Notes: a model not told the origin generated them from the letters alone. DNA of 40,000 nt from Pseudoxanthobacter sp. M-2 (GCF_046156265.1 NZ_JAWDIR010000046.1:91358-131357); one strand, 5' to 3'; numbered from the stretch's first letter, positions 21,090 to 40,000 are shown. Made by a program: numbers and translations.

Positions 21090-21091
21090 CG

Positions 21092-24184: not shown

Positions 24185-24355
24185 CGAACGCCTCCCGTCG
24201 GCCGAACGATTGGACCCGCGCGTGCGAGCCCAGCGCTGCTGGTGATTTTCTGGTTGCGACAGGCGGTCCGGCCGAAATCGGCCGCGCCGCTCGCCTGTCG
24301 GCCGCCGGCTGCACGCCGGCGGTGGTGCGGTTTCGAAGGTGGAGCCGGGGAGGCC

Positions 24356-25441: not shown

Positions 25442-25673
25442 GGGTGTCGTCGACCTCGCTCCGCCGTCGGTGCTCGCCTCGACCCGACGTCGCGGCCCGG
25501 GATCACCCTAGACGGCTTGCGACGAACGACTAAGATCGGCCGGCAACAATGCCCGTCCGCGGGCGCCACGAGTGTGGCAAAGCCGCGGGCGCGAGGCAAA
25601 TCACGGCCGCCGGGCGTTTGGGAGCGTCCGTCGTCCGTGCAGCCGGCGCCAGGCCGAGGGAGGATGGATCGCG

Positions 25674-26057: not shown

Positions 26058-26139
26058 CCGGCCTCCGAGATGCGGGCGCGGGCGCCCGGCCACGGGCGCC
26101 CCACCGCTGCGCGTGCACCGCGGGGAGCCCGCGCCTGCC

Positions 26140-27249: not shown

Positions 27250-28880
27250 TCCGATTGAAGGGCGGCCGCGTCATCGATCCGGCGCATGACCGCGACGAGA
27301 TCGATGACATCTGGATGCAGGACGGCCGCATCGTCGCGCGGCCGCCGCGCGGGACCGAGCCGGATGCCGTCCACGACGTCTCCGGCAAGGTCGTCATGGC
27401 CGGCGGCATCGACATCCACAGTCACGTCGCCGGCGGCAACGTCACGCTGTCGCGGCTGCTGCTGCCGGAGCTGCACGAGGGCACCGAGGCGCCGCCGGAG
27501 GGCCAGCCGTTCGGCACCGCCCGCTGGTCGAGCTACGAGACCGGCCGGCTCTATGCCCGCATGGGCTTCACCACGGTCGTCGAGCCGGCCGTCGCCCCGT
27601 CGCAGGCGCTGCAGGCGCACCTCGAGCTCGCCGACCTGCCGATCCTCGACAAGGCGACCCTGTCGGTGCTCGGCAACGACGAGGTGCTGCTCGGGTTGAT
27701 GCGCGACAAGGCCGGCCGCGACGCCATCGCCGACTATGTCGGGCTGGTGGTGGCGAAGAGCCGGGCGATCGGCGTCAAGTGCATCAACGCCGGCGGCTCG
27801 GCCGCCTTCAAGGACAACGTCCGCACCTTCGGCCTCGACGACGTCATCCCGTCCTACGGGCTGTCGTCGCGGCAGATCTTCAAGGCGCTGCAGCAGGCGG
27901 TGGTCGACCTGCGCATCCGCCATCCGCTGCACCTGCACTGCAACAATCTCGGCGTCGCCGGCGCCATCGAGACGCTGACCGAGACGATCGAGGCGGCGGA
28001 CGGGTTGCCGCTGCACCTCGCCCACGTGCAGTTCTACGCCTATGGGCGCGAGGGCAAGCGCGGCTTCTCCTCCGGCGCGCAGCAACTGATCCGCTCCCTC
28101 AACCTCAACCCGAACGTCACGGTCGACGTCGGTCAGGTGATGTTCGGCCAGACGGTGACGATCTCGTCGGATTCGCTGCGGCAATACTCCGCCCACGCGC
28201 TCGCCAGCCCGAACAAGTGGATCGTCTGGGACGGCGAGGGCAACGGCGGCGGCATCGTGCCGTTCCACTACAAGGCCTCGAACGTCATCAACGCCCTGCA
28301 GTGGGCGATCGGGCTCGAGATCTTCCTGTCGGCGCACGACCCCTGGCAGGTGTTCTTCACCACCGACCATCCGAACGGCGCGCCGTTCACCACCTACCCG
28401 AAGATCCTGCACCTCCTGATGGACCGCGACGAGCGCGCCCGCTACATCGCCGGCCTGCCGAAGGCGGCGATGGCGCTGTCGGCGCTGCCCTCGATCACCC
28501 GCGAGTTCACGCTTCAGGAAGTGGCGATCATGACGCGCGCGGCACCGGCGCGCCTGCTCGGCCTGACCGACCGCGGCCACCTCGCGCCCGGCTCGATCGC
28601 CGACGTGTCGGTCTACACCGACACTGCCGACCGCACCGCGATGTTCGAGAGGGCGGCGCTGGTCTTCAAGGACGGTCATCTCGTCGTCCGCGATGGCGAG
28701 GTGACCGAGTACCGCTTCGGCCGCGCCGAGACCGTCGAGCCCGGCTTCGACAAGGGGATCGTGCGAAAGATCGACGGCCGGCTCGGCGACCTCTACGGCA
28801 CCGACACGCGGCAGTTCACGGTGCCGGCCGGCGCGATCGGCCGCGACGAACCGTTCCGGGTGCATCCATGCCGAAGCTGA
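27243..28880 (+). CDS. fhcA: Formyltransferase/hydrolase complex subunit A (FmdA/FwdA homolog, amidohydrolase fold)
   Basis: MLIRLKGGRVIDPAH...VVMAGGIDIHSHVAGG (metal-binding HxH context) ...HLHCNNLG...LHLAHVQFY...FFTTDHPNG is the typical FhcA/FwdA pattern. Confidence 0.9.
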   Translation: MLIRLKGGRVIDPAHDRDEIDDIWMQDGRIVARPPRGTEPDAVHDVSGKVVMAGGIDIHSHVAGGNVTLSRLLLPELHEGTEAPPEGQPFGTARWSSYETGRLYARMGFTTVVEPAVAPSQALQAHLELADLPILDKATLSVLGNDEVLLGLMRDKAGRDAIADYVGLVVAKSRAIGVKCINAGGSAAFKDNVRTFGLDDVIPSYGLSSRQIFKALQQAVVDLRIRHPLHLHCNNLGVAGAIETLTETIEAADGLPLHLAHVQFYAYGREGKRGFSSGAQQLIRSLNLNPNVTVDVGQVMFGQTVTISSDSLRQYSAHALASPNKWIVWDGEGNGGGIVPFHYKASNVINALQWAIGLEIFLSAHDPWQVFFTTDHPNGAPFTTYPKILHLLMDRDERARYIAGLPKAAMALSALPSITREFTLQEVAIMTRAAPARLLGLTDRGHLAPGSIADVSVYTDTADRTAMFERAALVFKDGHLVVRDGEVTEYRFGRAETVEPGFDKGIVRKIDGRLGDLYGTDTRQFTVPAGAIGRDEPFRVHPCRS

Positions 28881-29773
28881 AGGTCAACGGCATTGGCATC
28901 GACGAGGGCTTCGCCGAGGCCTTCGATATGGCCGCCACCGGCGTCGTCATCACCGCCGACACCCTCGAGTGGGCGCGCGTCGCCGCGGTCTCGATGACGG
29001 GCTTCGCCACCTCCGTCATCGCCTGCGGCTGCGAGGCCGGCATCGAGCGCGAGCTTACGCCCGACGAGACGCCGGACGGCCGCCCGGGTGTGCGGGTGCT
29101 CCTGTTCGGCTTCTCGCCGCAGATCTGCGAGACGCAGATCGTCACCCGCGTCGGCCAGTGCGTGCTCACCTGCGCCGGCACCGCCTGCTTCGCCGGCCTG
29201 CCCGACGGCACGCCGATCAAGCTCGGGGCGAGCCTGCGCTACTTCGGCGACGGCCACCAGATCGCCAAGCAGATCGCCGGCCGCCGCTACTGGCGCGTGC
29301 CGGTGATGGACGGCGAGTTCCTCGTCGAGCACCACACGTTTGCGGTCGAAGGCGCTGTCGGCGGCGGCAACCTCCTGTTCCTCGCCACCTCGCGGGCCGG
29401 CGCCCGCGCCGCCGCGGAAGCGGCGGTGACGGCGATGCGCGACGTGCCGGACGTCATCATGCCGTTCCCCGGCGGCGTGGTGCGGTCGGGCTCCAAGGTC
29501 GGCTCGAAGTACAAGGGCCAACCCGCGTCCACCAACGACGCCTACTGCCCGACGCTGAAGGGCGGCGTCAAAAGCGCCCTCGATCCGGAGATCGAGGCGG
29601 TGCTCGAAATCGTCATCGACGGGCTGTCGTTCGCTGCCGTGCAGGAGGCGATGCGCGCCGGGCTGCACGCGGCGGCGGCCCTTGGCCGTGAATCGGGTCT
29701 GCGCCGCATCGCCGCCGGCAACTATGGCGGCAAGCTCGGTCGCCACCACTTCCATCTGAAGGACCTCGTCTGA
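28868..29773 (+). CDS. fhcD: Formylmethanofuran:tetrahydromethanopterin N-formyltransferase (Ftr homolog)
   Basis: MPKLKVNGIGIDEGFAEAFDMAATGVVITA...MTGFATSVIACGCEAGIE...VRVLLFGFS; about 301 aa. Overlaps the fhcA 3' end by 13 nt. The remainder of the 27779-29773 track ORF is off-frame over fhcA. Confidence 0.9.
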   Translation: MPKLKVNGIGIDEGFAEAFDMAATGVVITADTLEWARVAAVSMTGFATSVIACGCEAGIERELTPDETPDGRPGVRVLLFGFSPQICETQIVTRVGQCVLTCAGTACFAGLPDGTPIKLGASLRYFGDGHQIAKQIAGRRYWRVPVMDGEFLVEHHTFAVEGAVGGGNLLFLATSRAGARAAAEAAVTAMRDVPDVIMPFPGGVVRSGSKVGSKYKGQPASTNDAYCPTLKGGVKSALDPEIEAVLEIVIDGLSFAAVQEAMRAGLHAAAALGRESGLRRIAAGNYGGKLGRHHFHLKDLV

Positions 29774-30576
29774 TGGGCGCGCTCACCTTCACCCTGAAGG
29801 CGCCCCCGGCGGTCCGGGTCGACCTCGCACCGCTGACGCCGGAAAAGCTCGCGGGGCTGAAGCCGCGGGAGATCGCGAAGTGGCCGCTGGTCGGCGGTCG
29901 CGACGGCCTCACCGTCGGCGATCTCTTCACCGTCCGCGCCGGTGACGCCGAGACCATCGTCATCGACGGCGGCTCGCTGCTGTTCGATTCGGTCGGCGCC
30001 GGCATGGGTGGCGGCGCGATCCGCGTCGTCGGCGACGTCGGCGCCCGCGCCGGCGCGGGCATGCGCGGCGGGCGTCTCGATGTCGAGGGCTCGGCCGGAC
30101 CCTGGCTCGCCGCCGGGCTCACGGAGGGGCGGGTGTCGGTCGCGGGCGATGCTGCAGAGCGCGCCGGCGGGGCGCTGCCCGGTCGCATGGCCGGCATGGC
30201 CGGCGGCATCCTCACCATCGGCGGCACGGCGGGGCCGCGCTGCGGCGACCGCATGCGCCGCGGCCTGATCGTCGCCGGCGCCTGTGGGCCCGAGGCCGGA
30301 TCGCGGATGATCGCCGGCACCATCCTCGCCACGCGCTTCGGAGCCGACGCCGGGGTGCTGATGAAGCGTGGCACGCTCATCGCCGGCGCTCTCGATGCAC
30401 CGCCGCTGCCGACCTTCGTGTCCTGCGGCGAGCACGACCTGCAGGTGCTGCCGATGCTCGCCGCCTGGGTCGCGACGCTCGGCCTCGCCGCTCCGCCGGC
30501 GGTGCCCCGCCGCGTGCTGCGCCTGCAGGGCGACATGGCTGCCCTGGGCCTGGGCGAGATTCTGCTCGCCGCCTGA
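29773..30576 (+). CDS. fhcC: Formyltransferase/hydrolase complex subunit C (FmdC/FwdC homolog, beta-helix Gly repeats)
   Basis: Repeated G-x-x-G-x-x-M-x-G-G units (GAGMGGGAIRVVGDVGARAGAGMRGGRLDVEG...MAGGILTIGG). The start overlaps the fhcD stop (TGATG). Confidence 0.88.
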   Translation: MGALTFTLKAPPAVRVDLAPLTPEKLAGLKPREIAKWPLVGGRDGLTVGDLFTVRAGDAETIVIDGGSLLFDSVGAGMGGGAIRVVGDVGARAGAGMRGGRLDVEGSAGPWLAAGLTEGRVSVAGDAAERAGGALPGRMAGMAGGILTIGGTAGPRCGDRMRRGLIVAGACGPEAGSRMIAGTILATRFGADAGVLMKRGTLIAGALDAPPLPTFVSCGEHDLQVLPMLAAWVATLGLAAPPAVPRRVLRLQGDMAALGLGEILLAA

Positions 30577-30776
30577 GCATCCGGGACGCCTTCGGCAGAG
30601 ATCCCGCGACGGCATCACCCCCGTGGCGCTCCGGCCGGGCCCGGGACCCAATCCGTCCACCTCGCATCCGCCCCAGGCGACACCGTGCGCGGCGATGCAG
30701 CGCCGTCGCCCGCGGCCGGTCTGCTGCCGCACGGTGACGGTTGCTGCAGGCTGCTCGCGCGATCGTGAGGGCTAGC

Positions 30777-30792
30777 TGGCATTCTTCCTGCA
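30777..30792 (+). promoter_or_regulatory. Sigma54-like -24/-12 element (TGGCATTCTTCCTGCA)
   Basis: GG and GC dinucleotides have exactly the canonical spacing of TGGCAC-N5-TTGCW. The motif lies in a locally AT-richer patch about 150 nt upstream of the first small Cys-protein ORF. No enhancer-binding protein gene is in the window. Confidence 0.3.
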
Positions 30793-30943
30793 GGTTCTTA
30801 GGCACGAGACAGCGGTTCCCGCGAAGAACGGGGCCGTCGTGGCGGGGCGGTCTTGGACCAGCCCCCCGGGGGAGCGAGACGCGCGAGGTCAACCCGGCCG
30901 CCGAGGCTGTTCGACCAGCCGGCGGTCCATGGAGCGACCTGCC

Positions 30944-31153
30944 GTGGAAATCGTCATCACCGTCTGTGCCCTGCTCGCCGCCCACCCCTGCGAGGACCGC
31001 TCGATCGGCCTCGATCCGGAGGCGCGAATCACGCCGGCCACCTGCATGATGCAGGCGATGCCGATCGTCGCGCAGTGGGCGAGCGAGCATCCGAAGCTCG
31101 TGGTCAAGCGCTGGCGCTGCGCCGACCGCTCACGCAAGGAGTGGCCGGTCTGA
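30944..31153 (+). CDS. Small (about 69 aa) conserved-Cys hypothetical protein, paralog A
   Basis: GTG at 30944, with GGAG at 30931-30934; an alternative in-frame ATG is at 30929. It aligns along its length with the next ORF: VEIVITVC...C-ED...C-M..AMP..AQWA..HP..V.K.WRCA. G/C-rich third positions. Confidence 0.6.
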   Translation: MEIVITVCALLAAHPCEDRSIGLDPEARITPATCMMQAMPIVAQWASEHPKLVVKRWRCADRSRKEWPV

Positions 31154-31310
31154 CGGTCCAGTCGCAGGGATGTGATGTCGCAGAGGGCATCCATTCCCGC
31201 CGAGGCGCGTAAAAGTTCCCGTCAAACCCGGCGATCGGCGGGCTTCGGCGCGGCACTCACGGCTAGCCGCGCCCGCTCCGCGCAGCGACCGCTGCCCGAG
31301 GGGAAAGCCC

Positions 31311-31517
31311 GTGGAACTCATCGTCTTCGTCTGCCTCGTCGCCAATGCCGCCGTCTGCGAGGAACAGCACCTCTCGGTCGCGCTGGAGCCCGTGCCGCAG
31401 TCGCTCTGCATGGCGAAGGCGATGCCCCATCTCGCCCAGTGGGCCGGGGATCATCCGCAGTTCGTCATCAAGAAATGGCGTTGCGCCATTCCCGGCATGG
31501 ACGGCCGCGAGATCTGA
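31311..31517 (+). CDS. Small (68 aa) conserved-Cys hypothetical protein, paralog B
   Basis: GTG at 31311 with GAGGGGA 6 nt upstream. MELIVFVCLVANAAVCEEQ...LCMAKAMPHLAQWAGDHPQFVIKKWRCA is paralogous to 30944-31153. Protein-level conservation despite diverged DNA supports coding. Confidence 0.65.
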   Translation: MELIVFVCLVANAAVCEEQHLSVALEPVPQSLCMAKAMPHLAQWAGDHPQFVIKKWRCAIPGMDGREI

Positions 31518-31788
31518 GACGCCCGATCGTCGCCCGGTGACTCGGCGGGTGAGGCGGGGCCTGGCAGGCTCGACCGTCGTTTGCGGGCGCTCGGCACGGT
31601 GATCTTCGGGGCATTGTTCCCGGGGGGCTTGGCGTGACGGCCGCTTTCGGCCTCTACTGCGCCGCGGGTGACGATCGCCGCCGCCGGCGGTGATACCCCC
31701 ACGGATCGGGAGCCGTGCGGCACGCACCACGAACCTGGCCTCGCCGCGTCCCGGCGACGGAGCGCCCCTGCGCGGGTGGCCGGCGGCG

Positions 31789-33531
31789 ATGAGGCGCGCG
31801 CTCACCCTGCTGCGCTCGCTGCGCGCCCGCTTCCTGCTCGCCGTCGGCCTGCTCGCGCTGGTCGCCATGGCGGCGGCGGTGGCGCTCGTCGTCGGCATCT
31901 CGGCGGCGACGCGCGACATCGACACGGCGGCGGCGGCGCACCGCCGGGTCGAGCTCCTCGGTGCGCTGTCGGCCCGCGTCTCCGACTATGCGGTGCTGCT
32001 GCTGCAAGCGCTGGCGCCGGCCGCCACGGCGCCGCAGGGCGGCGGTGCCGACGTCGCCGGGACGCGCCTCGACAGCGCCCGCGTCCAGGTCGAGCGCGCC
32101 TTCGTCGACCTCGACGGCGCCCTGCGCGCCGAGATCGACCGCACCCCGGACGCCGACGGCAAGACGATGGTCGCGACGCGCTCGATCGTACTCGCCCGAA
32201 TGCGCGCCCGCTTCCAGTCGCTCGACCGCCAGGTACAGCCGCTGGTGTTCGGCCACGCCGGCGACCCCGCCGCCGATGCCGGCCGGCTGCGCGCCATGCT
32301 CGACACCTTCGCCACCTCGTTCGCGCCGCTGCTCGCCGAACTCATCGATGAGGAGCGCCGCACCTCATCGCTCGCACAGACCGAGACGAAGTCTCTGCGC
32401 GGCCGGCTGACGATGCTCGGCGTCGCCGCCGTCTGCGCCGTGCTGCTGCTCGCCGGCTTCGTCTATCTCGGCATCGTGCGGCCGGTGGCCACGCGCGCCG
32501 CCGCCGTCGCGCGGGCGGTGGGCGACATCGGCGCGGGCCGCTTCGACACCCGCCTCGCGATCGGCGGCCGCGACGAGCTCAGCCTGCTGATGCTCAGCGT
32601 CAACCGCATGGCGTCGCGCCTCGCCCGGCGCGAGGCCCGCGTCGACGCCGACCGGGCGCGGCTCACCGAGATCATCGAGGCGAACACCGCCGACCTGCGC
32701 GCCGCCAACCGCGCGCTCGAGGAGACCGACACCGCCCGCCGGCGCTTCTTCGCCGATGTCAGCCACGAGTTGCGCACGCCGCTCACCGTCATCCTCGGCG
32801 AGGCTGACGTGACGCTGCGCGCCGCCCAGAACCCGGAGCCGGTCTACCGGGCGGCGCTGACGACGATCCGTCAGCGCGGCCGCCGCCTCCGCCGCCGCGT
32901 CGAGGACCTGTTGCGCGTGGCGCGCTCGGAGAGTGGCCAGATCGAGCTCGCCGACGCCGATTTCGACGTAGCCCGGATGGTGTCGGAGGCCGTCGAGGAC
33001 GTCTCGGCCCTTGCGCGGGCCGCCGGCGTCCGGCTCGAGGCGACGCTGCCGCATAGCGGCTGCACCGCTCACGGCGATGCCGACTGGCTGCGGCAAGTCG
33101 TCGCCGGGGTGCTGGAGAATGCCGTCCGCCACTCGCCGCCGGGAGGCACCGTCGGGGTCCTCGCGCGCGCGGGCGGGGATACCATCGCGGTGACTGTCGT
33201 CGACGAGGGACCCGGCATCGCCGCGGAGGTGCTGCCGCACGTCTTCGAGCGGTTCTATCGGGGCGGCGACAGTGCCGAGCGCGGGCTCGGCTATGGCATC
33301 GGCCTGTCGCTTGCCAAGTGGATCGTCGATCAACATCATGGCGCCGTCGAAATCGAGAGCCCCGCGCGCCCGGATGGGTCGCAGGCGGGGACCGGGACGG
33401 ACGGCGCGCAGTCCGTGTCCTCCGGCGAAGCGGGATTGGGAGCCCGCCCGCCGGGAACACGGGTCACACTGCGGCTGCCGGCAGTCCGTCCGGCCGATCC
33501 GTCGGTCATGGTGATGGGAGGACAGGCGTGA
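31789..33531 (+). CDS. Sensor histidine kinase (TM - periplasmic domain - TM - HAMP - HisKA - HATPase_c)
   Basis: MRRALTLLRSLRARFLLAVGLLALVAMAAAV (TM1). Second transmembrane segment LTMLGVAAVCAVLLLAGFVYLGIV. HAMP domain. H-box FFADVSHELRTPLTVILGE. N, G1 and G2 boxes (ENAVRHSPPGG; VVDEGPGI; GYGIGLSLA). Start chosen at the ATG 31789 rather than 31690. Confidence 0.85.
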   Translation: MRRALTLLRSLRARFLLAVGLLALVAMAAAVALVVGISAATRDIDTAAAAHRRVELLGALSARVSDYAVLLLQALAPAATAPQGGGADVAGTRLDSARVQVERAFVDLDGALRAEIDRTPDADGKTMVATRSIVLARMRARFQSLDRQVQPLVFGHAGDPAADAGRLRAMLDTFATSFAPLLAELIDEERRTSSLAQTETKSLRGRLTMLGVAAVCAVLLLAGFVYLGIVRPVATRAAAVARAVGDIGAGRFDTRLAIGGRDELSLLMLSVNRMASRLARREARVDADRARLTEIIEANTADLRAANRALEETDTARRRFFADVSHELRTPLTVILGEADVTLRAAQNPEPVYRAALTTIRQRGRRLRRRVEDLLRVARSESGQIELADADFDVARMVSEAVEDVSALARAAGVRLEATLPHSGCTAHGDADWLRQVVAGVLENAVRHSPPGGTVGVLARAGGDTIAVTVVDEGPGIAAEVLPHVFERFYRGGDSAERGLGYGIGLSLAKWIVDQHHGAVEIESPARPDGSQAGTGTDGAQSVSSGEAGLGARPPGTRVTLRLPAVRPADPSVMVMGGQA

Positions 33532-34322
33532 TGAGCGTTTCCGGCATCGGTCCGGGGGCTTCGGCGCGCGCGGACGTCCGGTCGGATCAGGCCGGACCGA
33601 CGCTCGGCGGTGGCCGTTCTGTGCCGCCCGTCGCGGGCGATACCGCCGCCATCCTCGTCGTCGAGGACGATCCGGACATCGGCGGCTTCCTGCAGCGCGG
33701 CTTCCGGGCCGAGGGCTTCGCCGTCGAGCTCGTCGAGAGCGCCGACGCGGCGCTGGCGCTGGCGCTGCACCAGTCCTTCGACGCCGTCATCCTCGACGTC
33801 ATGCTGCAGGGCTCGTCGGGCCTCGATCTCTGCCGTTCGCTGCGCCAGATCGGCGTGACGAGCCCGATCCTGATGCTGTCAGCGCGCACCGCCGTTCCCG
33901 ACCGGGTGGAGGGGCTCGCGGCCGGGGCGGACGACTACATCGCCAAGCCCTTCGATTTCGACGAGCTGCTCGCCCGCCTCGCCGTCCAGCAGGTGCGCCG
34001 TCGCGACGACGATACCGGGCGGCTCGCGGTCGGCGACCTCGTGCTCGAGCTCGGCACCCGCACGGTCGTCAGCGGTGAGCATCGGGCGACGCTCACCGAA
34101 CGCGAGGCGGAGCTCTTGGCGCTGCTGATGCGCAACGCCGGCAAGCCGCTGACGCGCGGCCAGATCTTCGAGACGATGTGGGCGGGCCAGGGCGGCGCCG
34201 CCGTCAACGTCGTCGACGTCTACATCGGCTACCTGCGCCGCAAGCTCAGCCCCAACGGCGGCTCCGGCGAAACCCCGATCCGCACCATCCGCGGCCGCGG
34301 CTTCCTGCTCGCCGCCGACTGA
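33531..34322 (+). CDS. OmpR/PhoB-family response regulator (receiver plus winged-helix)
   Basis: ILVVEDDPDIGGFLQRGFRAEGF...AVILDVMLQGSSGLDLC...PILMLSAR...GADDYIAKPFDFDELLAR, then LTEREAELLALLMRNAGKPLTR...YIGYLRRKL...IRTIRGRGF. The ATG overlaps the kinase stop (TGATG). An alternative GTG start at 33621 would remove a ~30-aa low-complexity leader. Confidence 0.88.
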   Translation: MSVSGIGPGASARADVRSDQAGPTLGGGRSVPPVAGDTAAILVVEDDPDIGGFLQRGFRAEGFAVELVESADAALALALHQSFDAVILDVMLQGSSGLDLCRSLRQIGVTSPILMLSARTAVPDRVEGLAAGADDYIAKPFDFDELLARLAVQQVRRRDDDTGRLAVGDLVLELGTRTVVSGEHRATLTEREAELLALLMRNAGKPLTRGQIFETMWAGQGGAAVNVVDVYIGYLRRKLSPNGGSGETPIRTIRGRGFLLAAD

Positions 34323-34403
34323 ACCGCGGGCGGCCCGGCCGCAGCGAGCGCACGCGCGCCCGCTGCGATGCCGACCGCTCGACCTGTCCGACTGGAGTAC
34401 CCG

Positions 34404-35090
34404 ATGCGCCTGACGATGAGCACCCTGATCGCCGCCGCCCTCGCCGCCACGTTCGCGGCGGCGCCGGCGAAGGCCGCGGAGGCGACGGCGACGTCGCTCC
34501 TGTTCGAGAATGCACACTTCAACACGCTGCCGGACGGCACGGTGCTGTCCTACCGTTATGAGCGCGACACCGTCGACCCGGCCAAGCTCGGCGGCGCCTT
34601 CGAGGACGACATCAAGCTGACGCTCGGCACGCCGGGTCCCGACGGTCGGCGGGAGATCGTCGTGCAACTGTTCTCCGGCGATCGCCGCAAGCCGGCCGGG
34701 CCGTTCTCGCAGATGCTCGGCAATCCGCTGGTGATGCTGTTCCTCGAGGCGGACGTGAACGTCATGAAGGAACTCGTCGGCGGCAATCCGCGCTATCTGC
34801 GCAACAAGATCCGCGCGGCCTTCCGCGACGCCGGCAACGTCGAGGCGACGACGGTCACCGTCGACGGCGTCGAGGTGCCGGCGGAGCGCATCCGCCTGAA
34901 GCCGTTCGCCGACGACGTCCATCGCGCCGAGCTCGGGGCCTTCGTGGAGAAGACCTATGAGTTCGTCGTGTCCGACAAGGTGCCGGGCTCGCTCGTGCTC
35001 CTGCGCGCCGTCACCCCCCAGCTCGCCGGAACGGGCGAGCCCTATCTCGAGGAGGAGATCCGCTATGTCGGTGCCGCTCCCAAAGGCTGA
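34404..35090 (+). CDS. Secreted hypothetical protein (signal peptide, no domain recognised)
   Basis: GGAG at 34394-34397 before the ATG at 34404. Signal peptide MRLTMSTLIAAALAATFAAAPAKA|AE. Balanced, non-low-complexity composition with G/C-rich third positions. Confidence 0.65.
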   Translation: MRLTMSTLIAAALAATFAAAPAKAAEATATSLLFENAHFNTLPDGTVLSYRYERDTVDPAKLGGAFEDDIKLTLGTPGPDGRREIVVQLFSGDRRKPAGPFSQMLGNPLVMLFLEADVNVMKELVGGNPRYLRNKIRAAFRDAGNVEATTVTVDGVEVPAERIRLKPFADDVHRAELGAFVEKTYEFVVSDKVPGSLVLLRAVTPQLAGTGEPYLEEEIRYVGAAPKG

Positions 35091-35442
35091 GGCGCTCGGC
35101 GCCGTCCTCGTCGCGCTGGCCCTCGCCATCGCCGCACCCGCGTCCGCCCAGTCCCCGACGGACTTGCCGAACGACTATCCGACCATCACCCGCGCCGACT
35201 ATGTGTTCGGCTGCATGGCAGCGAACGGCGAGACGCGGACGGCGCTCGAGCGTTGCTCGTGCTCGATCGACGTCATCGCCTCGGTGCTGCCCTATGATCG
35301 CTACGTGCAGGCCGAGACGATCCTCAGCGTCGGCCGCGTCGGGGGCGAGAAGACGTCGATGTTCAAGTCTTCGCCGGTGATGAACAAGATCGTCGCCGAA
35401 CTGCGCCGGGCCCAGGCGGAGGCGGAGATCCGCTGCTTCTGA
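35065..35442 (+). CDS. Secreted 4-Cys hypothetical protein (signal peptide)
   Basis: GGAGGAG at 35051-35057 lies 7 nt before the ATG at 35065. Signal peptide ...LALAIAAPASA|QS. The mature part has YVFGCMAANG...CSCSIDVIAS...and a C-terminal RCF. Overlaps the preceding gene by 26 nt. Confidence 0.65.
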   Translation: MSVPLPKAEALGAVLVALALAIAAPASAQSPTDLPNDYPTITRADYVFGCMAANGETRTALERCSCSIDVIASVLPYDRYVQAETILSVGRVGGEKTSMFKSSPVMNKIVAELRRAQAEAEIRCF

Positions 35443-35557
35443 CGCCCATCGCCGCTCCTCCGCCTCCACGGCGCCGCCGGCCTCCTCCGGCGGTGGCCGT
35501 GCCCTGCCTTCGCCCCGAGCCGCCGCCCGCCGCCGGGCCGCGGCACAGGATTTCCCC

Positions 35558-36403
35558 ATGACCCGCATCCTGCGGCTCGGCCGGCTGGATCATCCGGTCG
35601 GAACGCGCACCCTCCTGATGGGCATCCTCAACGTCACGCCGGACTCGTTTTCCGACGGCGGCCGCCACGCCGGCGTCGAGGCGGCCGTGGCGCACGCGCG
35701 GCAGATGGTGGGCGAGGGTGCCGACATCATCGACGTCGGTGGCGAATCGACCCGCCCTGGCGCGACCGAGGTCGGTCCCGAGGAAGAACTCGCCCGCATC
35801 ACTCCGGTCATTCCGGCCGTCGCGGCCGCCGTTTCCGTGCCGATCTCGATCGACACCTACAAGGCGGCGGTGGCCGAGCGGGCGCTGTCCTTGGGGGCGA
35901 GCGTTGTCAACGACGTCTGGGGCCTGCAGCGCGAGCCGGAGATCGCCCGCGTCGCGGCCGCCCACGGCGCCGCCGTGATGATCATGCACAACCGCACGAC
36001 GGTCGACGCCACCCTCGACATCGTCGACGAGGTGCGCCGCTTCTTCCTGCGCTCGCTCGTCATCGCCGAGAAGGCGGGCATTCCCGACGACCGGATCGTG
36101 CTCGACCCCGGCATCGGCTTCGGCAAGACGCTCGAGCAGAACGTCGAGCTGATCGCCCGCCTGCCGGCGATCCGCGCCCTCGGGCTGCCGGTGCTGGTGG
36201 GCGCCTCGCGCAAGTCGCTGATCGGCAAGCTGCTCGACCAGCCGATCGGCGACCGGCTCCATGGCACGCTCGCGACCCACATCCTCGCGGTCGCCGGCGG
36301 CGCCGACATCGTGCGCATCCACGACGTGCGGGCCCACTTCGAGGCCTGCCGTATCGCCGACGTGATCTCGCGCGGTGACTTCAAGGGAACACACGCGCGA
36401 TGA
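35558..36403 (+). CDS. folP: Dihydropteroate synthase (bacterial FolP type)
   Basis: LMGILNVTPDSFSDGG, ADIIDVGGESTRPGA, ISIDTYK, VNDVWG, LDPGIGFGKT, and GASRKS are the canonical DHPS motifs. Confidence 0.9.
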   Translation: MTRILRLGRLDHPVGTRTLLMGILNVTPDSFSDGGRHAGVEAAVAHARQMVGEGADIIDVGGESTRPGATEVGPEEELARITPVIPAVAAAVSVPISIDTYKAAVAERALSLGASVVNDVWGLQREPEIARVAAAHGAAVMIMHNRTTVDATLDIVDEVRRFFLRSLVIAEKAGIPDDRIVLDPGIGFGKTLEQNVELIARLPAIRALGLPVLVGASRKSLIGKLLDQPIGDRLHGTLATHILAVAGGADIVRIHDVRAHFEACRIADVISRGDFKGTHAR

Positions 36404-36801
36404 GCGACCAGATCACAGACCAGATCACCCTTGCCAACGTCGCCTACTTCGCCCGCCACGGCCTGCACCCGGAGGAAGAGCGGCTCGGCCAGCGCTTCTA
36501 TGTCGACCTGACGGTGGACATCGACCTGTCGGCGGTGGGGCGAAGCGACGATTTCGCCGACACCGTCGGCTACGACAAGCTGCTCGACGTCGTCGGCGAG
36601 GTGGTCGCGGGCGAGCGGGTGAGCCTCATCGAGGTCCTGGCCGACCGTATCGCCCGCGCGGTGCTCCTGCGCTTCGACAAGATCACCGCGAGCGTCGTCA
36701 CCGTGCGCAAGCCGAGCGCACCGGTCGAGGGCATCCTCGACCACGTCGCCGTGACGGTCCGCCGGCGGCGCGAGGCTCCGGGCGGCTCCGATGCCGCCTG
36801 A
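36400..36801 (+). CDS. folB: Dihydroneopterin aldolase
   Basis: FARHGLHPEEERLGQRFYVDL...DTVGYDKL...LIEVLADRIA...V.VRKPSAP shows the FolB pattern. The start overlaps the folP stop (ATGA). Confidence 0.85.
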   Translation: MSDQITDQITLANVAYFARHGLHPEEERLGQRFYVDLTVDIDLSAVGRSDDFADTVGYDKLLDVVGEVVAGERVSLIEVLADRIARAVLLRFDKITASVVTVRKPSAPVEGILDHVAVTVRRRREAPGGSDAA

Positions 36802-37303
36802 GCCGGTGAAGGTGGAGGCGGCGATCGGGCTCGGCGGCAACGTCGGCGACAAGCGGGCGAACATCGACCGTGCCGTCGAGCGGCTGGCGGCGGTGCCGGG
36901 CGTGCGCGTCGTCGCCCGCTCCGGCTACTACCGGACCGAGCCGTGGGGCATCACCGAGCAGGACTGGTTCCTCAACGCCTGCCTCGTCGTCGAGACGACT
37001 TTGTCGCCGGCCGACCTGCTCGCCGCCTGCCTGGCGGTCGAGACTTCGCTCGGGCGCCGGCGCGCCGAGCGCTGGGGGCCGCGCATCATCGACCTCGACA
37101 TCCTCACCTTCGGCGGCCGCACGATCGACGAGCCAGGTCTCGAGGTCCCACATCCGCGACTGATGGAACGCGCCTTCGTGCTGGCGCCGCTCGCCGAGCT
37201 GCGGCCGGATCTCAGCGTCGGCGGTGTGCGCGTCGCCGATGCGCTCGCCACCGTCGGCGCCGGCGGCGTCGAGCGCCTCGACTGGGACGTGCCGCCGGCG
37301 TGA
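36791..37303 (+). CDS. folK: 2-amino-4-hydroxy-6-hydroxymethyldihydropteridine diphosphokinase (HPPK)
   Basis: IGLGGNVGD...SGYYRTEPWG...FLNACLVVET...WGPRIIDLDIL...LEVPHPRLMERAFVLAPL matches the HPPK signature. Overlaps the folB 3' end by 11 nt. Confidence 0.88.
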   Translation: MPPEPVKVEAAIGLGGNVGDKRANIDRAVERLAAVPGVRVVARSGYYRTEPWGITEQDWFLNACLVVETTLSPADLLAACLAVETSLGRRRAERWGPRIIDLDILTFGGRTIDEPGLEVPHPRLMERAFVLAPLAELRPDLSVGGVRVADALATVGAGGVERLDWDVPPA

Positions 37304-37428
37304 ACCACCGTGCCTTCCCGGATGTCAGCCCGTCGTGATTCGGGCACAATGACGGGACGTGATAGGAATAACTCCACGACAACGACGACGACCGGGGCAG
37401 TGGCATCCCGGCGCGAGGAGGGAACATC

Positions 37429-38346
37429 ATGACGGCGACCGGGCGAAACCTTCAGAGTGCAGCTCTGGCGCTGGCGCTGGTCGCCGGTGGCCTCGGCACG
37501 ACCCTTCTCGTGGCACCCGCCTCGGCCCAGGAGGTAGCTCAGCCGGCCGCCCAGGAGCCGGCCGAGACGACTTGGGAGGCGATCCGGGCCGATGTCGTCG
37601 GCGACACGGCGATCACCGCCGGCGAGGGCATCGTCGAGATCGAGGCGCCCTACCGCGCCCATGACGCCGCCATCGTGCCGATCGACGTCACCGCCCGGCT
37701 GCCCGAGGGGCGGACGGTGAAGCGGATGACGCTCGTCATCGACGAGAACCCGGCCCCCGTCGCCGCCACCTTCACCTTCGGCGAGCCGCAGGCGGAGATG
37801 GCGGTGTCGACGCGCGTGCGCATCAACTCCTACTCGTGGGTGCGCGCCATCGTCGAGGCGGATGACGGCTCGCTCTACATGTCGCGGCGCTATGTGAAGG
37901 CCTCCGGCGGCTGCTCGGCGCCGGCCCTGAAGGACGCCGACGCGGCGCTCGCCCAACTCGGCAAGATGAAGGTCCGCTTCCCCGAGGGCGCGGAAAAGGC
38001 GGCGACCTCGACGCCGGTTGCGGTGCCGTCCGCCAGCACCACGGCGGATGCGGGCGGAGCCAAGCGCCTGAAGGCGCAGATCATGATCCGCCACCCGAAC
38101 TATTCGGGCCTGCAGATGAACCAGCTGACCCAGCTCTACATCCCGGCCCATTTCGTCAACGACATCGAGATCAGCCAGGGCGGCCAGATGCTCCTGAAGA
38201 TGGAGGGCGGCATCTCGCTGAGCGAGGATCCGACCATCGCCTTCGATTTCGTCTCGAACGGCTCGCCGGTGCTGGACGTGAAGGCGATCGACACCGACGG
38301 CCAGGTCTTCTCCGGCGCCTTCCCGGTGGACACGGGCCGCTCGTGA
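37429..38346 (+). CDS. Quinoprotein-dehydrogenase-associated fused SoxY-SoxZ-like carrier protein (periplasmic)
   Basis: Signal peptide ...LLVAPASA|QE. SoxY-like Ig fold (IVEIEAPYRAHDAAIVPIDV; MTLVIDENPAPVAATF) ending in ASGGCSAP (Cys codon 37912-37914). A linker follows, then a SoxZ-like domain (IMIRHPNYSGLQMNQLTQLYIPAHFVNDIEISQGG). Confidence 0.8.
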   Translation: MTATGRNLQSAALALALVAGGLGTTLLVAPASAQEVAQPAAQEPAETTWEAIRADVVGDTAITAGEGIVEIEAPYRAHDAAIVPIDVTARLPEGRTVKRMTLVIDENPAPVAATFTFGEPQAEMAVSTRVRINSYSWVRAIVEADDGSLYMSRRYVKASGGCSAPALKDADAALAQLGKMKVRFPEGAEKAATSTPVAVPSASTTADAGGAKRLKAQIMIRHPNYSGLQMNQLTQLYIPAHFVNDIEISQGGQMLLKMEGGISLSEDPTIAFDFVSNGSPVLDVKAIDTDGQVFSGAFPVDTGRS

Positions 38347-39347
38347 GGCACGCTCTCGCCGCCGCCTCCCTGGCGGCGGCGCTGATGGCGGTGGCGCCGG
38401 TCGAGGCCGTCGCCGCCGCGGACGGCGCCCCGGCCGCCGGCACAGCGAGCCCCCCGGGGGCGTCCGCCCCTCCCACTTCAACCACCGTCGCCCCTCTCGC
38501 GGTCGCAGAGGTGGCGCCCGGCGTGTTCGTCCATGAGGCGCCGTTCGCGCTGATTGCGCCGGCAAACCGCGGCGACATCGCCAACCTCGGCTTCATCATC
38601 GGCGACGACGCGGTCGCGGTGATCGACACCGGCGGCAGCGTCGCCGTGGGACAGGGGCTGCTGGCGGCGGTGCGCGCTCGCACCGACAAGCCAGTGCGCT
38701 ACGTCGTCAACACCCACGTCCACCCGGACCACCTCGCCGGCAACGCCGCCTTCACGGCCGAGGGGGCGAAGATCGTCGGTCACCACAAGCTCGCCCGTGC
38801 GCTGGCCGCCCGCGCGCCCTTCTACCGCGAGCAGGCCGACCGCCAGCTCGCCCCCGCGGATGCTGCGCAGAGCGACTTCCTGCCCCCCGACCTCGCCGTG
38901 GAGGGAACGATGCGCCTCGATCTCGGCGGGCGCGAACTGGTGCTCGAGGCTCATCCGACGGCGCACACCGACGCCGACCTCTCCGTGCTGGACGTCGAGA
39001 CCGGCACCTGGTTCCTCGGGGACCTGCTGTTCGCCGGCCACCTGCCGACGATCGACGGCTCGCTGACCGGCTGGCTGGCCGAGATGGACCGCCTCGCCGA
39101 ACGCCCGGTGGCGCGTGTCGTGCCCGGCCACGGCCCGCGCGTGATGGCCTGGCCGGAGGCGCTGGCGCCACAGCGGCGCTACCTCGCGCGAATCGCCTCC
39201 GACGTCCGGACGCTGATCGCCGAAGGCCGTTCGATCTCTGCTGCGGCGGAGACCGCCGGCCTCAGCGAACGCGAGATGTGGGCGCTGTTCGAGGAGTTCA
39301 ATCCGCGCAATGCGACGGCGGCTTTCCAAGAGCTGGAGTGGGAGTAG
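38343..39347 (+). CDS. Periplasmic metallo-beta-lactamase-fold zinc hydrolase ('quinoprotein relay system' type)
   Basis: GTG start overlaps the carrier gene's stop (GTGA). Signal peptide AAALMAVAPVEA. HVHPDH (HxHxDH) at 38715-38732. Later His/Asp ligand contexts (EAHPTAHTDAD; VVPGHG). Confidence 0.8.
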   Translation: MRHALAAASLAAALMAVAPVEAVAAADGAPAAGTASPPGASAPPTSTTVAPLAVAEVAPGVFVHEAPFALIAPANRGDIANLGFIIGDDAVAVIDTGGSVAVGQGLLAAVRARTDKPVRYVVNTHVHPDHLAGNAAFTAEGAKIVGHHKLARALAARAPFYREQADRQLAPADAAQSDFLPPDLAVEGTMRLDLGGRELVLEAHPTAHTDADLSVLDVETGTWFLGDLLFAGHLPTIDGSLTGWLAEMDRLAERPVARVVPGHGPRVMAWPEALAPQRRYLARIASDVRTLIAEGRSISAAAETAGLSEREMWALFEEFNPRNATAAFQELEWE

Positions 39348-39399
39348 TTCCCGTGCTGAAAGGCAAGAACCCCTCGATTTCAGAGCCGATATAAGGGGA

Positions 39400-39428
39400 T
39401 TGTCACCGGCCTAAGCCTACCATAAGAT
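39400..39428 (+). promoter_or_regulatory. Candidate sigma70-type promoter for the PQQ dehydrogenase gene (TTGTCA-17 nt-TAAGAT)
   Basis: TTGTCA at 39400-39405, a 17-nt spacer, then TAAGAT at 39423-39428, in the only clearly AT-enriched stretch of the 296-bp intergenic region. Implies a 5' leader of about 210 nt. Sequence match only. Confidence 0.3.
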
Positions 39429-39643
39429 CGCTTCAGTTTCCGACTGCAGCGGCGACCCGTTTGGGAGCGGGCCGTCCGGTTCGAAGGCCGAGCGGGCGCC
39501 ATGCCCAGCGACAATGACCGGACAAAGTCCGGCAGGCCGTGACACGCTGTCGGGAGCGTTGGTCCCAATAACAGGAAGTCGGCGGGTGTGCGCCTGTGCG
39601 TACGCGCGTGTCGACTCTCGGGAAAACGCAAGGAGGAACTGGC

Positions 39644-40000
39644 ATGAGGCGATCCGCTTGGTCGTCCATGGTGGCGGCCCTGCCGCTCATGGTCACCGCG
39701 CCTGCTCTGGCGAACGACGACCTGATGAAGCTGATCGACGACCCCAACCAGTGGGTCATCCAGACCGGCGACTACGCCAACACCCGCTACTCGAAGCTCG
39801 ACCAGATCAACAAGAGCAACGTCAAGGATCTTCAGGTCGCCTGGACGTTCTCGACGGGTGTGCTGCGCGGTCACGAGGGCTCGCCTCTCGTCATCGGCAA
39901 CATGATGTACGTCCATACGCCGTTCCCCAACATCGTCTATGCGCTCGACCTCGACAAGGAAGCGCAGATCGTCTGGAAGTATGAGCCCAAGCAGGATCCG
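39644..40000 (+). CDS. PQQ-dependent methanol/ethanol-family dehydrogenase (XoxF/MxaF family), N-terminal fragment running off the window
   Basis: This ORF is absent from the track because it has no stop in the window. AAGGAGGA SD precedes the ATG at 39644. MRRSAWSSMVAALPLMVTAPALA|NDDLMKLIDDPNQWVIQTGDYANTRYSKLDQINKSNVKDLQVAWTFSTGVLRGHEGSPLVIGNMMYVHTPFPNIVYALDL matches the N-terminal propeller blades of XoxF/MxaF. Confidence 0.9.
   Translation, partial: MRRSAWSSMVAALPLMVTAPALANDDLMKLIDDPNQWVIQTGDYANTRYSKLDQINKSNVKDLQVAWTFSTGVLRGHEGSPLVIGNMMYVHTPFPNIVYALDLDKEAQIVWKYEPKQDP

Follow-up and report, generated by a model that had tools for sequence, protein, structure and literature searches.

What does a SoxYZ-like carrier, paired with a metallo-β-lactamase (MBL)-fold hydrolase, do immediately upstream of a lanthanide-type alcohol dehydrogenase? 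The question is raised by the 3′ end of a 40,000-nucleotide stretch of DNA from Pseudoxanthobacter sp. M-2, referred to here as the window; coordinates are counted from its first letter, and every gene feature placed by coordinates below, apart from one rejected antisense frame, lies on the plus strand. In soils, in oceans, and in bacteria associated with plants, lanthanide-dependent PQQ alcohol dehydrogenases play a central part in oxidizing methanol and alcohols, and they also matter for rare-earth biotechnology. The cargo of the carrier's cysteine, once known, would indicate whether these dehydrogenases depend on a system of their own for protection, repair, or maturation; such a system would have consequences for heterologous expression and might account for their sensitivity to sulfur compounds. 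The pair belongs to already named, widespread families found alongside lanthanide-dependent alcohol dehydrogenases and does not represent a new system. Its association with PQQ dehydrogenases is already described (NCBIfam; PMC12997753; PMC11237559; PMC11582611). A covalent carrier with a hydrolase acting upon it is the obvious reading, and the one that the name "quinoprotein relay system" expresses. Possibly new is an extended parts list, including two cysteine-rich families without a name, one of which occurs in fusion with the hydrolase.

The carrier gene (ORF A, 37429..38346, 305 aa) starts at an ATG with an AGGAGG-like site 6 nt 5′ of it and encodes a SoxY–SoxZ-like fusion. It scores 269.9 bits (E 1.4e-80) against the NCBIfam model TIGR04557, whose curated cut-off is 140, and is 100% identical to an NCBI protein of Pseudoxanthobacter sp. 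M-2 that bears the same family name; it is near certain that ORF A is the Pseudoxanthobacter ortholog of this fused SoxYZ-like carrier. The SoxY-like domain (residues 54–162, 37588..37914; Pfam SoxY, 119 bits) closes with a GGC motif, and in the AF2 model Foldseek matches it to SoxY at TM 0.77–0.84. The SoxZ-like domain (residues 214–296, 38068..38316; Pfam SoxZ, 77.7 bits) matches SoxZ structures 1v8h and 2ox5_A at TM 0.75–0.84 and contains an invariant RHPN motif, with H222 in 150 of 151 family representatives and P223 in all 151. Between the two lies a poorly conserved, probably disordered linker (residues 190–208, 37996..38052) that varies in length and sequence across the alignment and has pLDDT below 50 at residues 190–201 and 203–208. 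Both Sox folds are recovered by structure prediction, as had been anticipated for the fusion. A database search for TIGR04557-type carriers returned more than 7000 sequences, which formed 425 clusters at 50% identity (E ≤ 1e-30).

Both folds, the carrier cysteine, and the SoxZ HP motif are common to ORF A and canonical SoxYZ (Paracoccus pantotrophus, PDB 2ox5), but the canonical protein consists of two polypeptides and ORF A of one. ORF A also falls under the cut-offs of the "true" SoxY and SoxZ models (TIGR04488, 81.7 vs. 125 bits; TIGR04490, 47.2 vs. 76 bits). Canonical SoxY carries a Tat leader, whereas the leader of ORF A (residues 1–33, 37429..37527, ending VAPASA/QE) is of the Sec type as read from the translation and has no twin-arginine motif; the model is of low confidence at residues 1–29. 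Nor are soxXAB or soxCD found nearby. Between ORF A and the TIGR04557 family there is no essential difference: the SoxY–SoxZ fusion, the internal GGC cysteine, and the neighborhood of PQQ dehydrogenase and SoxH-like hydrolase are the same, and only the carrier–hydrolase gene order is rare. An origin of ORFs A and B by chance or artifact is ruled out by HMM E-values of approximately 1e-80 and 1e-121 and by a coding-type GC pattern at third codon positions. A 545-aa antisense frame at 36928..38565 is a typical spurious ORF of 71% GC DNA.

The most informative residue of the carrier is Cys162, the presumed covalent attachment site, encoded in frame by TGC at 37912..37914 within VKASGGCSAP. In a profile alignment, its GGC lines up with the C-terminal GGC of solved SoxY chains; Pfam, this alignment, and the fold matches agree on the secreted fusion with an internal GGC cysteine that the first-pass annotation had described. 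In canonical SoxY the cysteine sits on a free C-terminal GGCGG, whereas in ORF A it is internal, in the context GGCSAPALKD, with a helix, the linker, and in all 143 residues after it. The model places it on a loop right after the last Y-domain strand, where confidence falls (pLDDT 63 for residues 161–170, against 89–98 and 90 in the flanking blocks). Cys162 is invariant in 80 of 80 close homologs and is kept in 150 of the 151 representatives of the 50%-identity clusters; in 121 of these it is the sole cysteine of the mature protein. The expected conservation among orthologs is thus borne out, and its extent across 151 diverse representatives is new in this analysis.

The start codon of the hydrolase gene (ORF B, 38343..39347, 334 aa) is a GTG that overlaps the TGA of ORF A (GTGA, 38343–38346), and the product is a secreted MBL-fold protein with a predicted two-metal site. 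Against TIGR04559, "quinoprotein relay system zinc metallohydrolase 2," it scores 402.7 bits (E 9e-121; curated cut-off 280), against the paralogous TIGR04558 166.1 bits, under the cut-off of 300, and against Pfam Lactamase_B 91 bits. ORF B is, near certainly, the Pseudoxanthobacter ortholog of TIGR04559, a SoxH-related two-metal hydrolase. Both NCBIfam names given by the first-pass annotation are exactly right, each model being matched above its cut-off, and sequence and HMM evidence likewise bear out the overlap with a secreted HxHxDH protein. The metal-binding motif HVHPDH (residues 125–130, 38715..38732) supplies H125, H127, D129, and H130, which, together with H208, D227, and H263, are invariant in 47 hydrolase orthologs; the latter three are the remaining metal-ligand candidates. 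The predicted ligand set appears complete, and the fold model (pLDDT 90), for which Foldseek returns MBL-fold hydrolases, confirms the MBL site. TIGR04559 members share this HxHxDH...H...D...H site and the adjoining carrier and xoxF; the SoxH-like PP_2678 of P. putida is a relative. TIGR04559 orthologs of other lineages begin with a four-cysteine domain of approximately 65 aa that is separately encoded, twice, in the window, whereas the N-terminus of ORF B reads as an ordinary Sec-type signal peptide (ending APVEA/VAA). An alternative ATG start at 38384 was rejected: it would cut the charged N-region of this signal peptide, and the GTG is the start called on independent contigs.

The nearest solved folds to ORF B are a dehalogenase, alkylsulfatases, and B2 lactamases. 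Chlorothalonil dehalogenase Chd (6uxu) and the B. cenocepacia MBL protein 8d2z are closest (TM 0.74 to 0.82), with the alkylsulfatases SdsA1 and Pisa1 also among the closest, and the C-terminal helical extension of ORF B is common to these structures. Identity to Chd, 8d2z, and SdsA1/Pisa1 is only 17–24%. Their substrates are not transferable, and no action on an adduct attached to a protein is known for any of the four. Alkylsulfatases hydrolyze sulfate esters, which was counted for a sulfur cargo on the carrier; the closest solved relative is a dehalogenase and no sulfur enzyme, which was counted against it. Among the top 50 Foldseek matches there is no glyoxalase II and no persulfide dioxygenase of the ETHE1/PDO type; PqsE appears at ranks 41 and 49.

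Downstream of ORF B, a relatively AT-rich spacer of 296 bp (39348..39643) contains one sigma-70-like match, TTGTCA-17-TAAGAT at 39400–39428 (one found vs. 0.4 expected in shuffles), and because of this match xoxF probably has its own promoter, if on weak evidence. An Rfam scan of positions 30000–40000 recovered no RNA family at its gathering score. The 5′ part of the dehydrogenase gene (39644..40000, from an ATG at 39644) runs off the window and matches the N-terminus of TIGR03075, in agreement with the XoxF-type gene previously placed 296 bp downstream. The full gene on an identical metagenome contig encodes 602 aa, scores 786 bits to TIGR03075 (PQQ methanol/ethanol dehydrogenase), and contains EWDYDG, with the DYD lanthanide signature, and MCCD, with a vicinal cysteine pair. 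Family, DYD, and CC together point to a XoxF-type lanthanide-dependent PQQ dehydrogenase. Downstream of xoxF on the same contig are xoxG, xoxJ, and a gene for a rhodanese-like "CXXCW" protein.

Proximity to xoxF could in principle be incidental, two unrelated periplasmic proteins having come to lie there by chance. The synteny of 80 species loci, which are the closest relatives only, all Alphaproteobacteria and phylogenetically non-independent, bears on this directly. The hydrolase lies within 1.5 kb of the carrier in 42/80 loci and 2–8 kb away in 12 more, and XoxF lies within 10 kb in 39/80, compared with approximately 1/80 estimated at random for a one-to-three-copy gene in a 4–6 Mb genome; the proposed linkage to PQQ dehydrogenases across genomes thus held. 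Orientation and order do vary, as chance would predict, and 26/80 loci have no MBL hydrolase within 10 kb of the carrier, but the linkage survives the changes of orientation, and Pseudomonas and gammaproteobacterial symbionts have the same trio. Because of the synteny counts, incidental adjacency is effectively refuted. The overlapping carrier-then-hydrolase order of the window is found in only 2/80 loci, the usual arrangement being divergent or hydrolase-first; two hydrolase subtypes were considered as an explanation and rejected, since all seven hydrolases tested from differing layouts belong to TIGR04559.

The conserved accessory module to which carrier and hydrolase belong has further members. 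The carrier's commonest immediate neighbor across species belongs to an unnamed family of secreted proteins, represented in the window by a 125-aa protein (35065..35442) with four cysteines that are invariant in the homolog alignment (FGC, CxC, and a C-terminal CF); its more than 7900 homologs are all labeled "hypothetical." This gene is found within 10 kb of the carrier in 63/80 loci and within 600 bp in 51/80, convergent with it in 59/63, and reciprocal look-ups succeeded in 3/3 cases; in the window, folP-folB-folK lie between it and the carrier gene. Directly upstream of the four-cysteine gene, always on the same strand and in 54/54 loci, is a gene for a secreted, cysteine-free protein of another unnamed family (34404..35090, 228 aa; motifs GNP, GGsPfY.rNr, PF..Dp, and vPG). 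A second unnamed four-cysteine family, with the consensus mel....Cl.a.p..C.ee.l....e...p.qCmm.a.P.iA.W.e.HPkw.v.rWrC, is present as two tandem paralogs with GTG starts, small ORF 1 (30944..31153, 69 aa) and small ORF 2 (31311..31517, 68 aa). In a count over the 80 species loci, loci L083–L086, and the window, free-standing homologs of this small domain are present in 32 loci. In 6 loci the domain is the N-terminal part of a fusion with the TIGR04559 hydrolase. The 125-aa and 228-aa proteins and the small ORFs have no match in Pfam, NCBIfam, or PDB sequences. Also conserved is the CXXCW gene, which lies directly 3′ of xoxJ in 36/36 loci. Most module proteins have signal peptides, and several are cysteine-rich.

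Regulatory and cofactor genes accompany these components. Domain matches identify a HAMP-HisKA histidine kinase (31789–33531) and an OmpR-type response regulator (33531–34322), with kinases in 35/80 and regulators in 36/80 carrier loci; they are probably mxbD/mxbM, given their position beside pqq genes in Methylobacterium loci. In M. extorquens AM1, mxbM and mxbD are META1p1752 and 1753, beside pqq (PMC6414531). The genes pqqB and pqqE occur near the carrier in 22–24/80 loci. Among Alphaproteobacteria, the module is found together with xoxFGJ of the lanthanide type, genes for PQQ biosynthesis, and mxbDM-like regulators.

Could the module handle the product of XoxF? Among the adducts that the first-pass annotation had proposed are a thiohemiacetal and an S-formyl group, with the hydrolase as a thioesterase. 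In such a periplasmic route Cys162 would trap the aldehyde as a thiohemiacetal, which would be oxidized to an S-formyl or S-acyl thioester from which the hydrolase would free formate. The pair does sit right beside xoxF in the window, as it lies within reach of xoxF in the 39 loci counted above; the MBL superfamily includes thioesterases, with PqsE among the fold matches; a role in carbon metabolism has been suggested (PMC11237559); and in Rhodobacterales (clusters 24 and 26) ORFs that read as a glutathione-dependent formaldehyde dehydrogenase and an S-formylglutathione hydrolase lie between xoxF and the pair. None of this speaks specifically for an aldehyde-derived adduct or for a thioesterase. 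ORF B scores 24.6 bits against the glyoxalase II model TIGR03413, where the cut-off is 200.8, and its best fold matches are the dehalogenase, alkylsulfatases, and B2 lactamases. In 41/80 loci there is no xoxF within 10 kb of the carrier, yet the cysteine-rich partners and pqq genes are retained, and in the 26/80 loci that lack the MBL protein within that distance the carrier likewise keeps other partners. The M. extorquens AM1 homologs, as named by a review, are not induced by La, under which xoxFGJ rise 16–21 fold (PMC6414531 supplement), and the formaldehyde made by XoxF1 reaches the Fae/H4MPT route in free form in vivo (PMC6414531). The window is itself a methylotrophy island that carries the H4MPT route (mch and fhcABCD). 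In P. putida, moreover, genes for a rhodanese protein, SoxYZ-like carrier, and SoxH-like hydrolase are found with pedH (PMC12997753), the substrates of PedH not being C1 compounds, and transposon mutants assayed by RB-TnSeq showed only minimal effects on alcohols, though without rare-earth elements (PMC12997753), a result counted against the aldehyde route and against a relay alike. An aldehyde route is accordingly judged improbable.

The Sox-like features of the pair raise instead the question of dissimilatory sulfur metabolism, in which a ThdT-like XoxF-type enzyme would pass thiosulfate or tetrathionate to a thiol, here the fused carrier, and the SoxH-like hydrolase would replace SoxB. ThdT, a XoxF homolog of Advenella kashmirensis, is a XoxF-type PQQ protein handling thiol-linked sulfur compounds; it reportedly joins tetrathionate to glutathione and also oxidizes thiosulfate (Pyne et al., 2018, as cited in bioRxiv 10.1101/683490, bioRxiv 10.1101/708438, and PMC6548844). 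SoxH has been suggested as a replacement for SoxB in a Sulfurimonas strain (PMC11237559), and Methylophaga thiooxydans, which lacks soxAB, encodes two soxYZ fusions together with XoxF enzymes. ThdT, however, uses glutathione and canonical SoxB/SoxCD, with no fused-carrier link among the published statements, and in Paracoccus thiocyanatus the claim failed to replicate, a xoxF knock-out having wild-type sulfur phenotypes there. The H. denitrificans PQQ-dehydrogenase cluster, where the Sox(YZ) fusion and SoxH adjoin YeeE-like pmpAB, shows no response to thiosulfate (PMC11582611), and the family is present in bacteria unable to oxidize thiosulfate (PMC11237559); both observations were also counted against a sulfur cargo in general. 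No soxXA, soxB, or soxCD was found in the 10 kb flanking the carrier to each side on the identical contig or among the window ORFs scanned, which lay beyond positions 1–16585. Finally, the adjacent enzyme is 75–97% identical to carrier-adjacent XoxF-type enzymes of known methylotroph genera. That the locus serves dissimilatory sulfur oxidation is very improbable.

A maturation role is somewhat better placed, if still unlikely: the cysteine proteins would form or isomerize the vicinal disulfide, or would work with XoxJ to bring PQQ to the apo-enzyme, for example in the form of a reversible hemithioketal on Cys162; the hydrolase would serve for release or proofreading. The linkage of the carrier beyond xoxF, to pqqB, pqqE, and the regulator pair, is what such a role would predict, as is the CC pair kept in all neighboring dehydrogenases (39/39 of the XoxF within 10 kb have both D-[YF]-D and CC). 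In AM1, the homologs follow the pqq genes in their response to La, with a slight decrease that is not significant for the homologs themselves, and do not follow xoxF (PMC6414531 supplement). On the other hand, the Ca-dependent ExaA of P. aeruginosa shares the disulfide and PQQ without these genes (PMC12997753), disulfide formation has no obvious need of a hydrolase, a PQQ–thiol carrier is without known precedent, and general Dsb systems are present in these bacteria. Disulfide formation, cofactor stabilization, and protection of PQQ from sulfur nucleophiles have each been proposed in a review (PMC12997753).

We tentatively favor, short of confidence, a Sox-like cysteine relay in which a sulfur or thiol adduct serves to keep the PQQ dehydrogenase working. 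Cys162 would be the covalent attachment site, as in SoxY, on a loop tethered at both ends, and a carbon adduct would be a less likely cargo than a sulfur or thiol adduct, whether persulfide, thiosulfonate, or mixed disulfide. This sulfur or thiol adduct may pass between cysteine proteins, namely the CXXCW protein after xoxJ, the four-cysteine protein with the C-terminal CF, and the small four-cysteine domain, and the hydrolase would take it off, in the way that SoxB clears adducts from SoxY and that SoxH has been suggested to act. The partner families (rhodanese-like, YeeE-like PmpAB, thioredoxin-related, and cysteine-rich small proteins) handle sulfur or thiols; in M. extorquens a thioredoxin-like gene is also found with this set (PMC12997753). 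The small four-cysteine domain has no classical signal peptide, which was counted against the relay because it puts the compartment of the fused hydrolases in doubt. The module would thereby mature, protect, or repair the dehydrogenase against sulfur nucleophiles, the likely targets being the electrophilic C5 carbonyl of PQQ and the strained vicinal Cys–Cys disulfide, while the main carbon flux would not be carried by it. The absence of La induction of the AM1 homologs with xoxFGJ fits such a housekeeping role.

A more specific form of this cysteine relay is doubtful: that the pair is the visible part of a dedicated, mostly secreted system of at least six components, comprising the SoxYZ carrier, the SoxH-like hydrolase, the CXXCW protein, the four-cysteine protein with its partner of approximately 230 aa, and the four-cysteine domain of approximately 65 aa. 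It would represent an undescribed covalent maintenance or maturation of PQQ dehydrogenases, for example by taking sulfur adducts off PQQ or the vicinal disulfide, or by delivering thiol-bound PQQ. The literature on the phenotypes and biochemistry of these families consists of context-based remarks, one RB-TnSeq summary, and one RNA-seq table, and no adduct, activity, or phenotype is shown in it for any family member. At the level of expression, the "SoxZ-like" Snov_1060 of Starkeya, which we infer to be the SoxYZ fusion, was detected under all growth conditions (PMC3797975).

The carrier gene (ORF A, 37429..38346, + strand, 305 aa), a SoxY-SoxZ fusion, and the hydrolase gene (ORF B, 38343..39347, + strand, 334 aa, GTG start), encoding a metallo-beta-lactamase (MBL)-fold protein, are laid out as the first-pass annotation described them. 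The TGA of the former and the GTG of the latter share GTGA at 38343-38346; Cys162 of the carrier is encoded by the TGC codon at 37912-37914, within VKASGGCSAP; residues 125-130 of the hydrolase read HVHPDH; and a XoxF-type gene, resembling the N-terminus of the PQQ methanol/ethanol dehydrogenase family, begins with the ATG at 39644, 296 bp past the hydrolase. By inspection of the sequence, each protein starts with what looks like a Sec-type signal peptide. The family names given at that stage were also right: the carrier matches its NCBIfam model (TIGR04557) and the hydrolase TIGR04559, 'quinoprotein relay system zinc metallohydrolase 2' (402.7 bits by HMM, cut-off 280), both above cut-off. 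Pfam places SoxY at residues 54-162 and SoxZ at 214-296 of the carrier, and Lactamase_B on the hydrolase. The finding is correct, yet already known: the family pair has been named from genomic context and its association noted in the literature. The carrier has 100% identity to a Pseudoxanthobacter sp. M-2 protein already so named by NCBI, and database searches recover more than 7000 homologues of each protein. A 545-aa antisense ORF across the entire carrier gene (36928-38565, - strand) was rejected; it is Arg/Pro/Gly-rich, a typical spurious ORF of DNA with 71% GC, the content of this window.

When one genome per species was scanned, at least 595 loci matched; the best 80, all from Alphaproteobacteria, were analysed by tblastn and unbiased ORF clustering. 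The hydrolase lies within 1.5 kb of the carrier in 42/80 of these (divergent in 26, upstream and co-oriented in 14 and, as in the window, downstream in 2) and 2-8 kb off, beside xoxF, in 12/80; no hydrolase was found within 10 kb in 26/80. XoxF is encoded within 10 kb in 39/80, with D-[YF]-D and CC present in all. Gene linkage in these loci is strong and persists through changes of orientation. The closest partner of the carrier is not the hydrolase but a secreted four-cysteine (4-Cys) protein, encoded in the window at 35065-35442 (+ strand, 125 aa), with four invariant Cys in FGC, CxC and a C-terminal CF. Members of this ~125-aa family are found no more than 10 kb from the carrier in 63/80 loci, no more than 600 bp from it in 51, and convergent with it in 59/63, and a Cys-free secreted partner of ~230 aa (228 aa in the window, 34404-35090, + strand) directly precedes the 4-Cys gene on the same strand in 54/54. 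This unnamed secreted pair comprises the most constant neighbours of the carrier across the 80 species, ahead of the hydrolase and xoxF. The 23 examined loci lacking a hydrolase or XoxF-type neighbour, which include Ancylobacter, Methylopila, Starkeya and Hansschlegelia, mostly keep both genes of the pair, along with pqqB, pqqE, fae and a kinase-regulator pair, and in three of three look-ups from distant 4-Cys members a SoxY-SoxZ fusion gene was found convergent alongside. Neither family matched a Pfam or NCBIfam model, and the homologues of the 4-Cys protein that database search recovers, more than 7900, are all labelled 'hypothetical'. The parts list, extended in this way, may contribute to the real and testable question of what the carrier and hydrolase families do.

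In a profile built from 26 homologues, the GGC of the carrier falls opposite the GGC at the C-terminus of solved SoxY chains, and the AlphaFold model (pLDDT 80.7, pTM 0.76) comprises two beta-sandwich domains, for which Foldseek recovers SoxY (2nnc, 2ox5; TM 0.77-0.84) and SoxZ (1v8h, 2ox5_A; TM 0.75-0.84), respectively. Cys162 is placed right after the last Y-domain strand (149-157), where model confidence drops (pLDDT 63). Because a short helix, a strand and then a disordered linker (190-208) follow it, it is, in the model, a loop cysteine anchored at both ends, with no free swinging tail. When 1.84 billion cluster representatives were scanned in full with HMMER, 425 carrier clusters came out at E <= 1e-30. 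Among the best 150 of these plus the query (n=151), the Cys is kept in 150/151, and the mature protein has no other Cys in 121/151; N107, P108, R131, H222 and P223 are as conserved as Cys162. The sole exception (P0475) carries Phe, with GGF for GGC, and may be a natural loss-of-function or non-catalytic variant. The carrier scores under the cut-offs of the 'true' SoxY and SoxZ models, and is a relative rather than a member of the Sox thiosulfate system.

Seven of seven hydrolases tested, from loci of differing layout, belong to TIGR04559. Residues H125, H127, D129, H130, H208, D227 and H263 are kept in 47 orthologues, a predicted metal site that is complete. The closest solved structures to the confident model (pLDDT 90.1) are chlorothalonil dehalogenase (6uxu) and a Burkholderia MBL protein that is itself uncharacterised (8d2z); the alkylsulfatases SdsA1 and Pisa1 and B2 carbapenemases are also near, with the thioesterase PqsE lower in the list. 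Kinship with glyoxalase II was not found by HMM (24.6 bits, cut-off 200.8). The first-pass annotation had suggested a periplasmic relay in which the carrier Cys would hold an aldehyde-derived adduct and the MBL protein would act as a thioesterase or persulfide-processing enzyme. This proposal is not new in spirit, and the evidence, including the distance from glyoxalase II, does not favour it; an aldehyde carrier seems improbable, and ranks third among the readings considered.

The hydrolase has a further candidate associate in a second unnamed family. Two small ORFs (30944-31153 and 31311-31517, both + strand, GTG start, four Cys) are tandem paralogues of ~69 aa, each with a Shine-Dalgarno-like site upstream and neither with a Pfam or NCBIfam match. 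Their domain opens with M-x-E, five hydrophobic residues and Cys, and it lacks a classical signal peptide. A profile of homologues of both ORFs, run on the 80 species loci, L083-L086 and the window, recovers the domain free-standing in 32 loci and at the head of the TIGR04559 hydrolase in at least six (L007, L008, L011, L024, L031, L038; E-values 3e-13 to 6.5e-5), a fusion by which the small proteins are connected with the hydrolase. Rhodobacterales and Agrobacterium loci carry a more divergent Cys-rich N-terminal extension of the same pattern. Many hydrolase orthologues begin MFE(A/V)..., with a Cys-rich extension of ~65 aa where the window copy has its signal peptide (e.g., L083 9337-9600; L019 13081-13300; Rhodobacterales L064, L069, L072, L074, L082).

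The identical carrier gene occurs on two metagenome contigs, where the order is carrier, hydrolase, a 602-aa XoxF-type enzyme (786 bits on TIGR03075; EWDYDG and MCCD present), xoxG (TIGR03874), an xoxJ-like gene for a binding protein (TIGR03871), and the rhodanese-like 'PQQ-dependent catabolism-associated CXXCW motif protein' (TIGR03865). The last lies immediately 3' of xoxJ in 36/36 cases across the species loci. In the copy on one of these contigs (L001, 15664-16275) and its relatives, the motif is really F-F-C-x3-C-W-M-S (e.g., CEPECW, CLEDCW), three residues separating the two Cys in the rhodanese-like active-site loop. The sole sigma-70-like match in 34200-39800 (39400-39428, + strand) falls in an AT-richer spacer ahead of xoxF, which suggests that xoxF may be transcribed apart from the carrier-hydrolase pair. 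A HAMP/HisKA histidine kinase and OmpR-type response regulator (31789-34322, + strand) are probably mxbDM: such genes are close to the carrier in 35-36/80 loci, and in Methylobacterium loci the pair adjoins the pqq genes, the site of mxbD and mxbM in AM1.

Related arrangements have been described elsewhere. In Pseudomonas putida, a rhodanese (PP_2666), a fused SoxYZ-like protein (PP_2677) and a SoxH-like protein (PP_2678) adjoin pedH, with META1p1703-1705 as Methylobacterium extorquens homologues; RB-TnSeq phenotypes were minimal, rare-earth elements being absent from the tests, and a 2026 review covering the ped cluster puts forward disulfide formation, stabilisation of the cofactor, or shielding of PQQ from sulfur nucleophiles (PMC12997753). 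Fused SoxYZ clades of lucinid symbionts occur with a PQQ dehydrogenase and soxH, or with xoxF, and a role in carbon metabolism was suggested (PMC11237559). In H. denitrificans, a PQQ-dehydrogenase cluster combines SoxH and a Sox(YZ) fusion with the YeeE-like pmpAB, whose transcription is unresponsive to thiosulfate (PMC11582611). In M. extorquens AM1, La raises xoxFGJ 16-21 fold, and META1p1702-1705 and META1p1746/1747 (beside pqqE) change by log2 -0.5 to -1.0, not significantly (PMC6414531 and supplement); from their position, META1p1746 and 1747 would be the two unnamed secreted proteins. The 'SoxZ-like' Snov_1060 of Starkeya novella, detected in all growth conditions (PMC3797975), is presumably a SoxYZ fusion.

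As to the cargo and purpose of the carrier, we tentatively favour, at rather less than an even chance, a cysteine relay that would mature, protect or repair the PQQ enzyme, with the hydrolase stripping the adduct from the carrier. It is favoured because relatives of the carrier bear sulfur adducts on the equivalent Cys; because the partners (rhodanese-like, YeeE-like, thioredoxin-related, cysteine-rich) are of sulfur- or thiol-handling kinds; because pqq genes and regulators are tied to the module no less than xoxF is; and because the AM1 module is not induced along with xoxF. A maturation role without sulfur cargo is possible and ranks second, though we consider it unlikely. Least probable, after the aldehyde carrier, is a sulfur-oxidation role like that of ThdT, the XoxF homologue of Advenella kashmirensis: tetrathionate-glutathione coupling is reported for ThdT, but a Paracoccus thiocyanatus xoxF knock-out showed no sulfur phenotype.

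Upstream of the carrier, the window is a methylotrophy island. Tetrahydromethanopterin-linked formaldehyde oxidation occupies 19301-30576, with CitG-like, MptN-like ligase, mch, beta-RFAP synthase, pterin-4a-carbinolamine dehydratase-like, fhcB, fhcA, fhcD and fhcC genes; two ORFs within it (22135-23358 and 23288-24355, both - strand) had no NCBIfam match. The island also takes in the two small ORFs, the kinase and regulator genes and the unnamed secreted pair, and it includes folP, folB and folK (35558-37303, + strand; TIGR01496, TIGR00525, TIGR01498), which part that pair from the carrier. In M. extorquens AM1 (META1p1743-1745) and in other Methylobacterium loci, this trio has xoxJ on one side and the pqq genes on the other, a placement that hints at a dedicated pterin supply inside the island.
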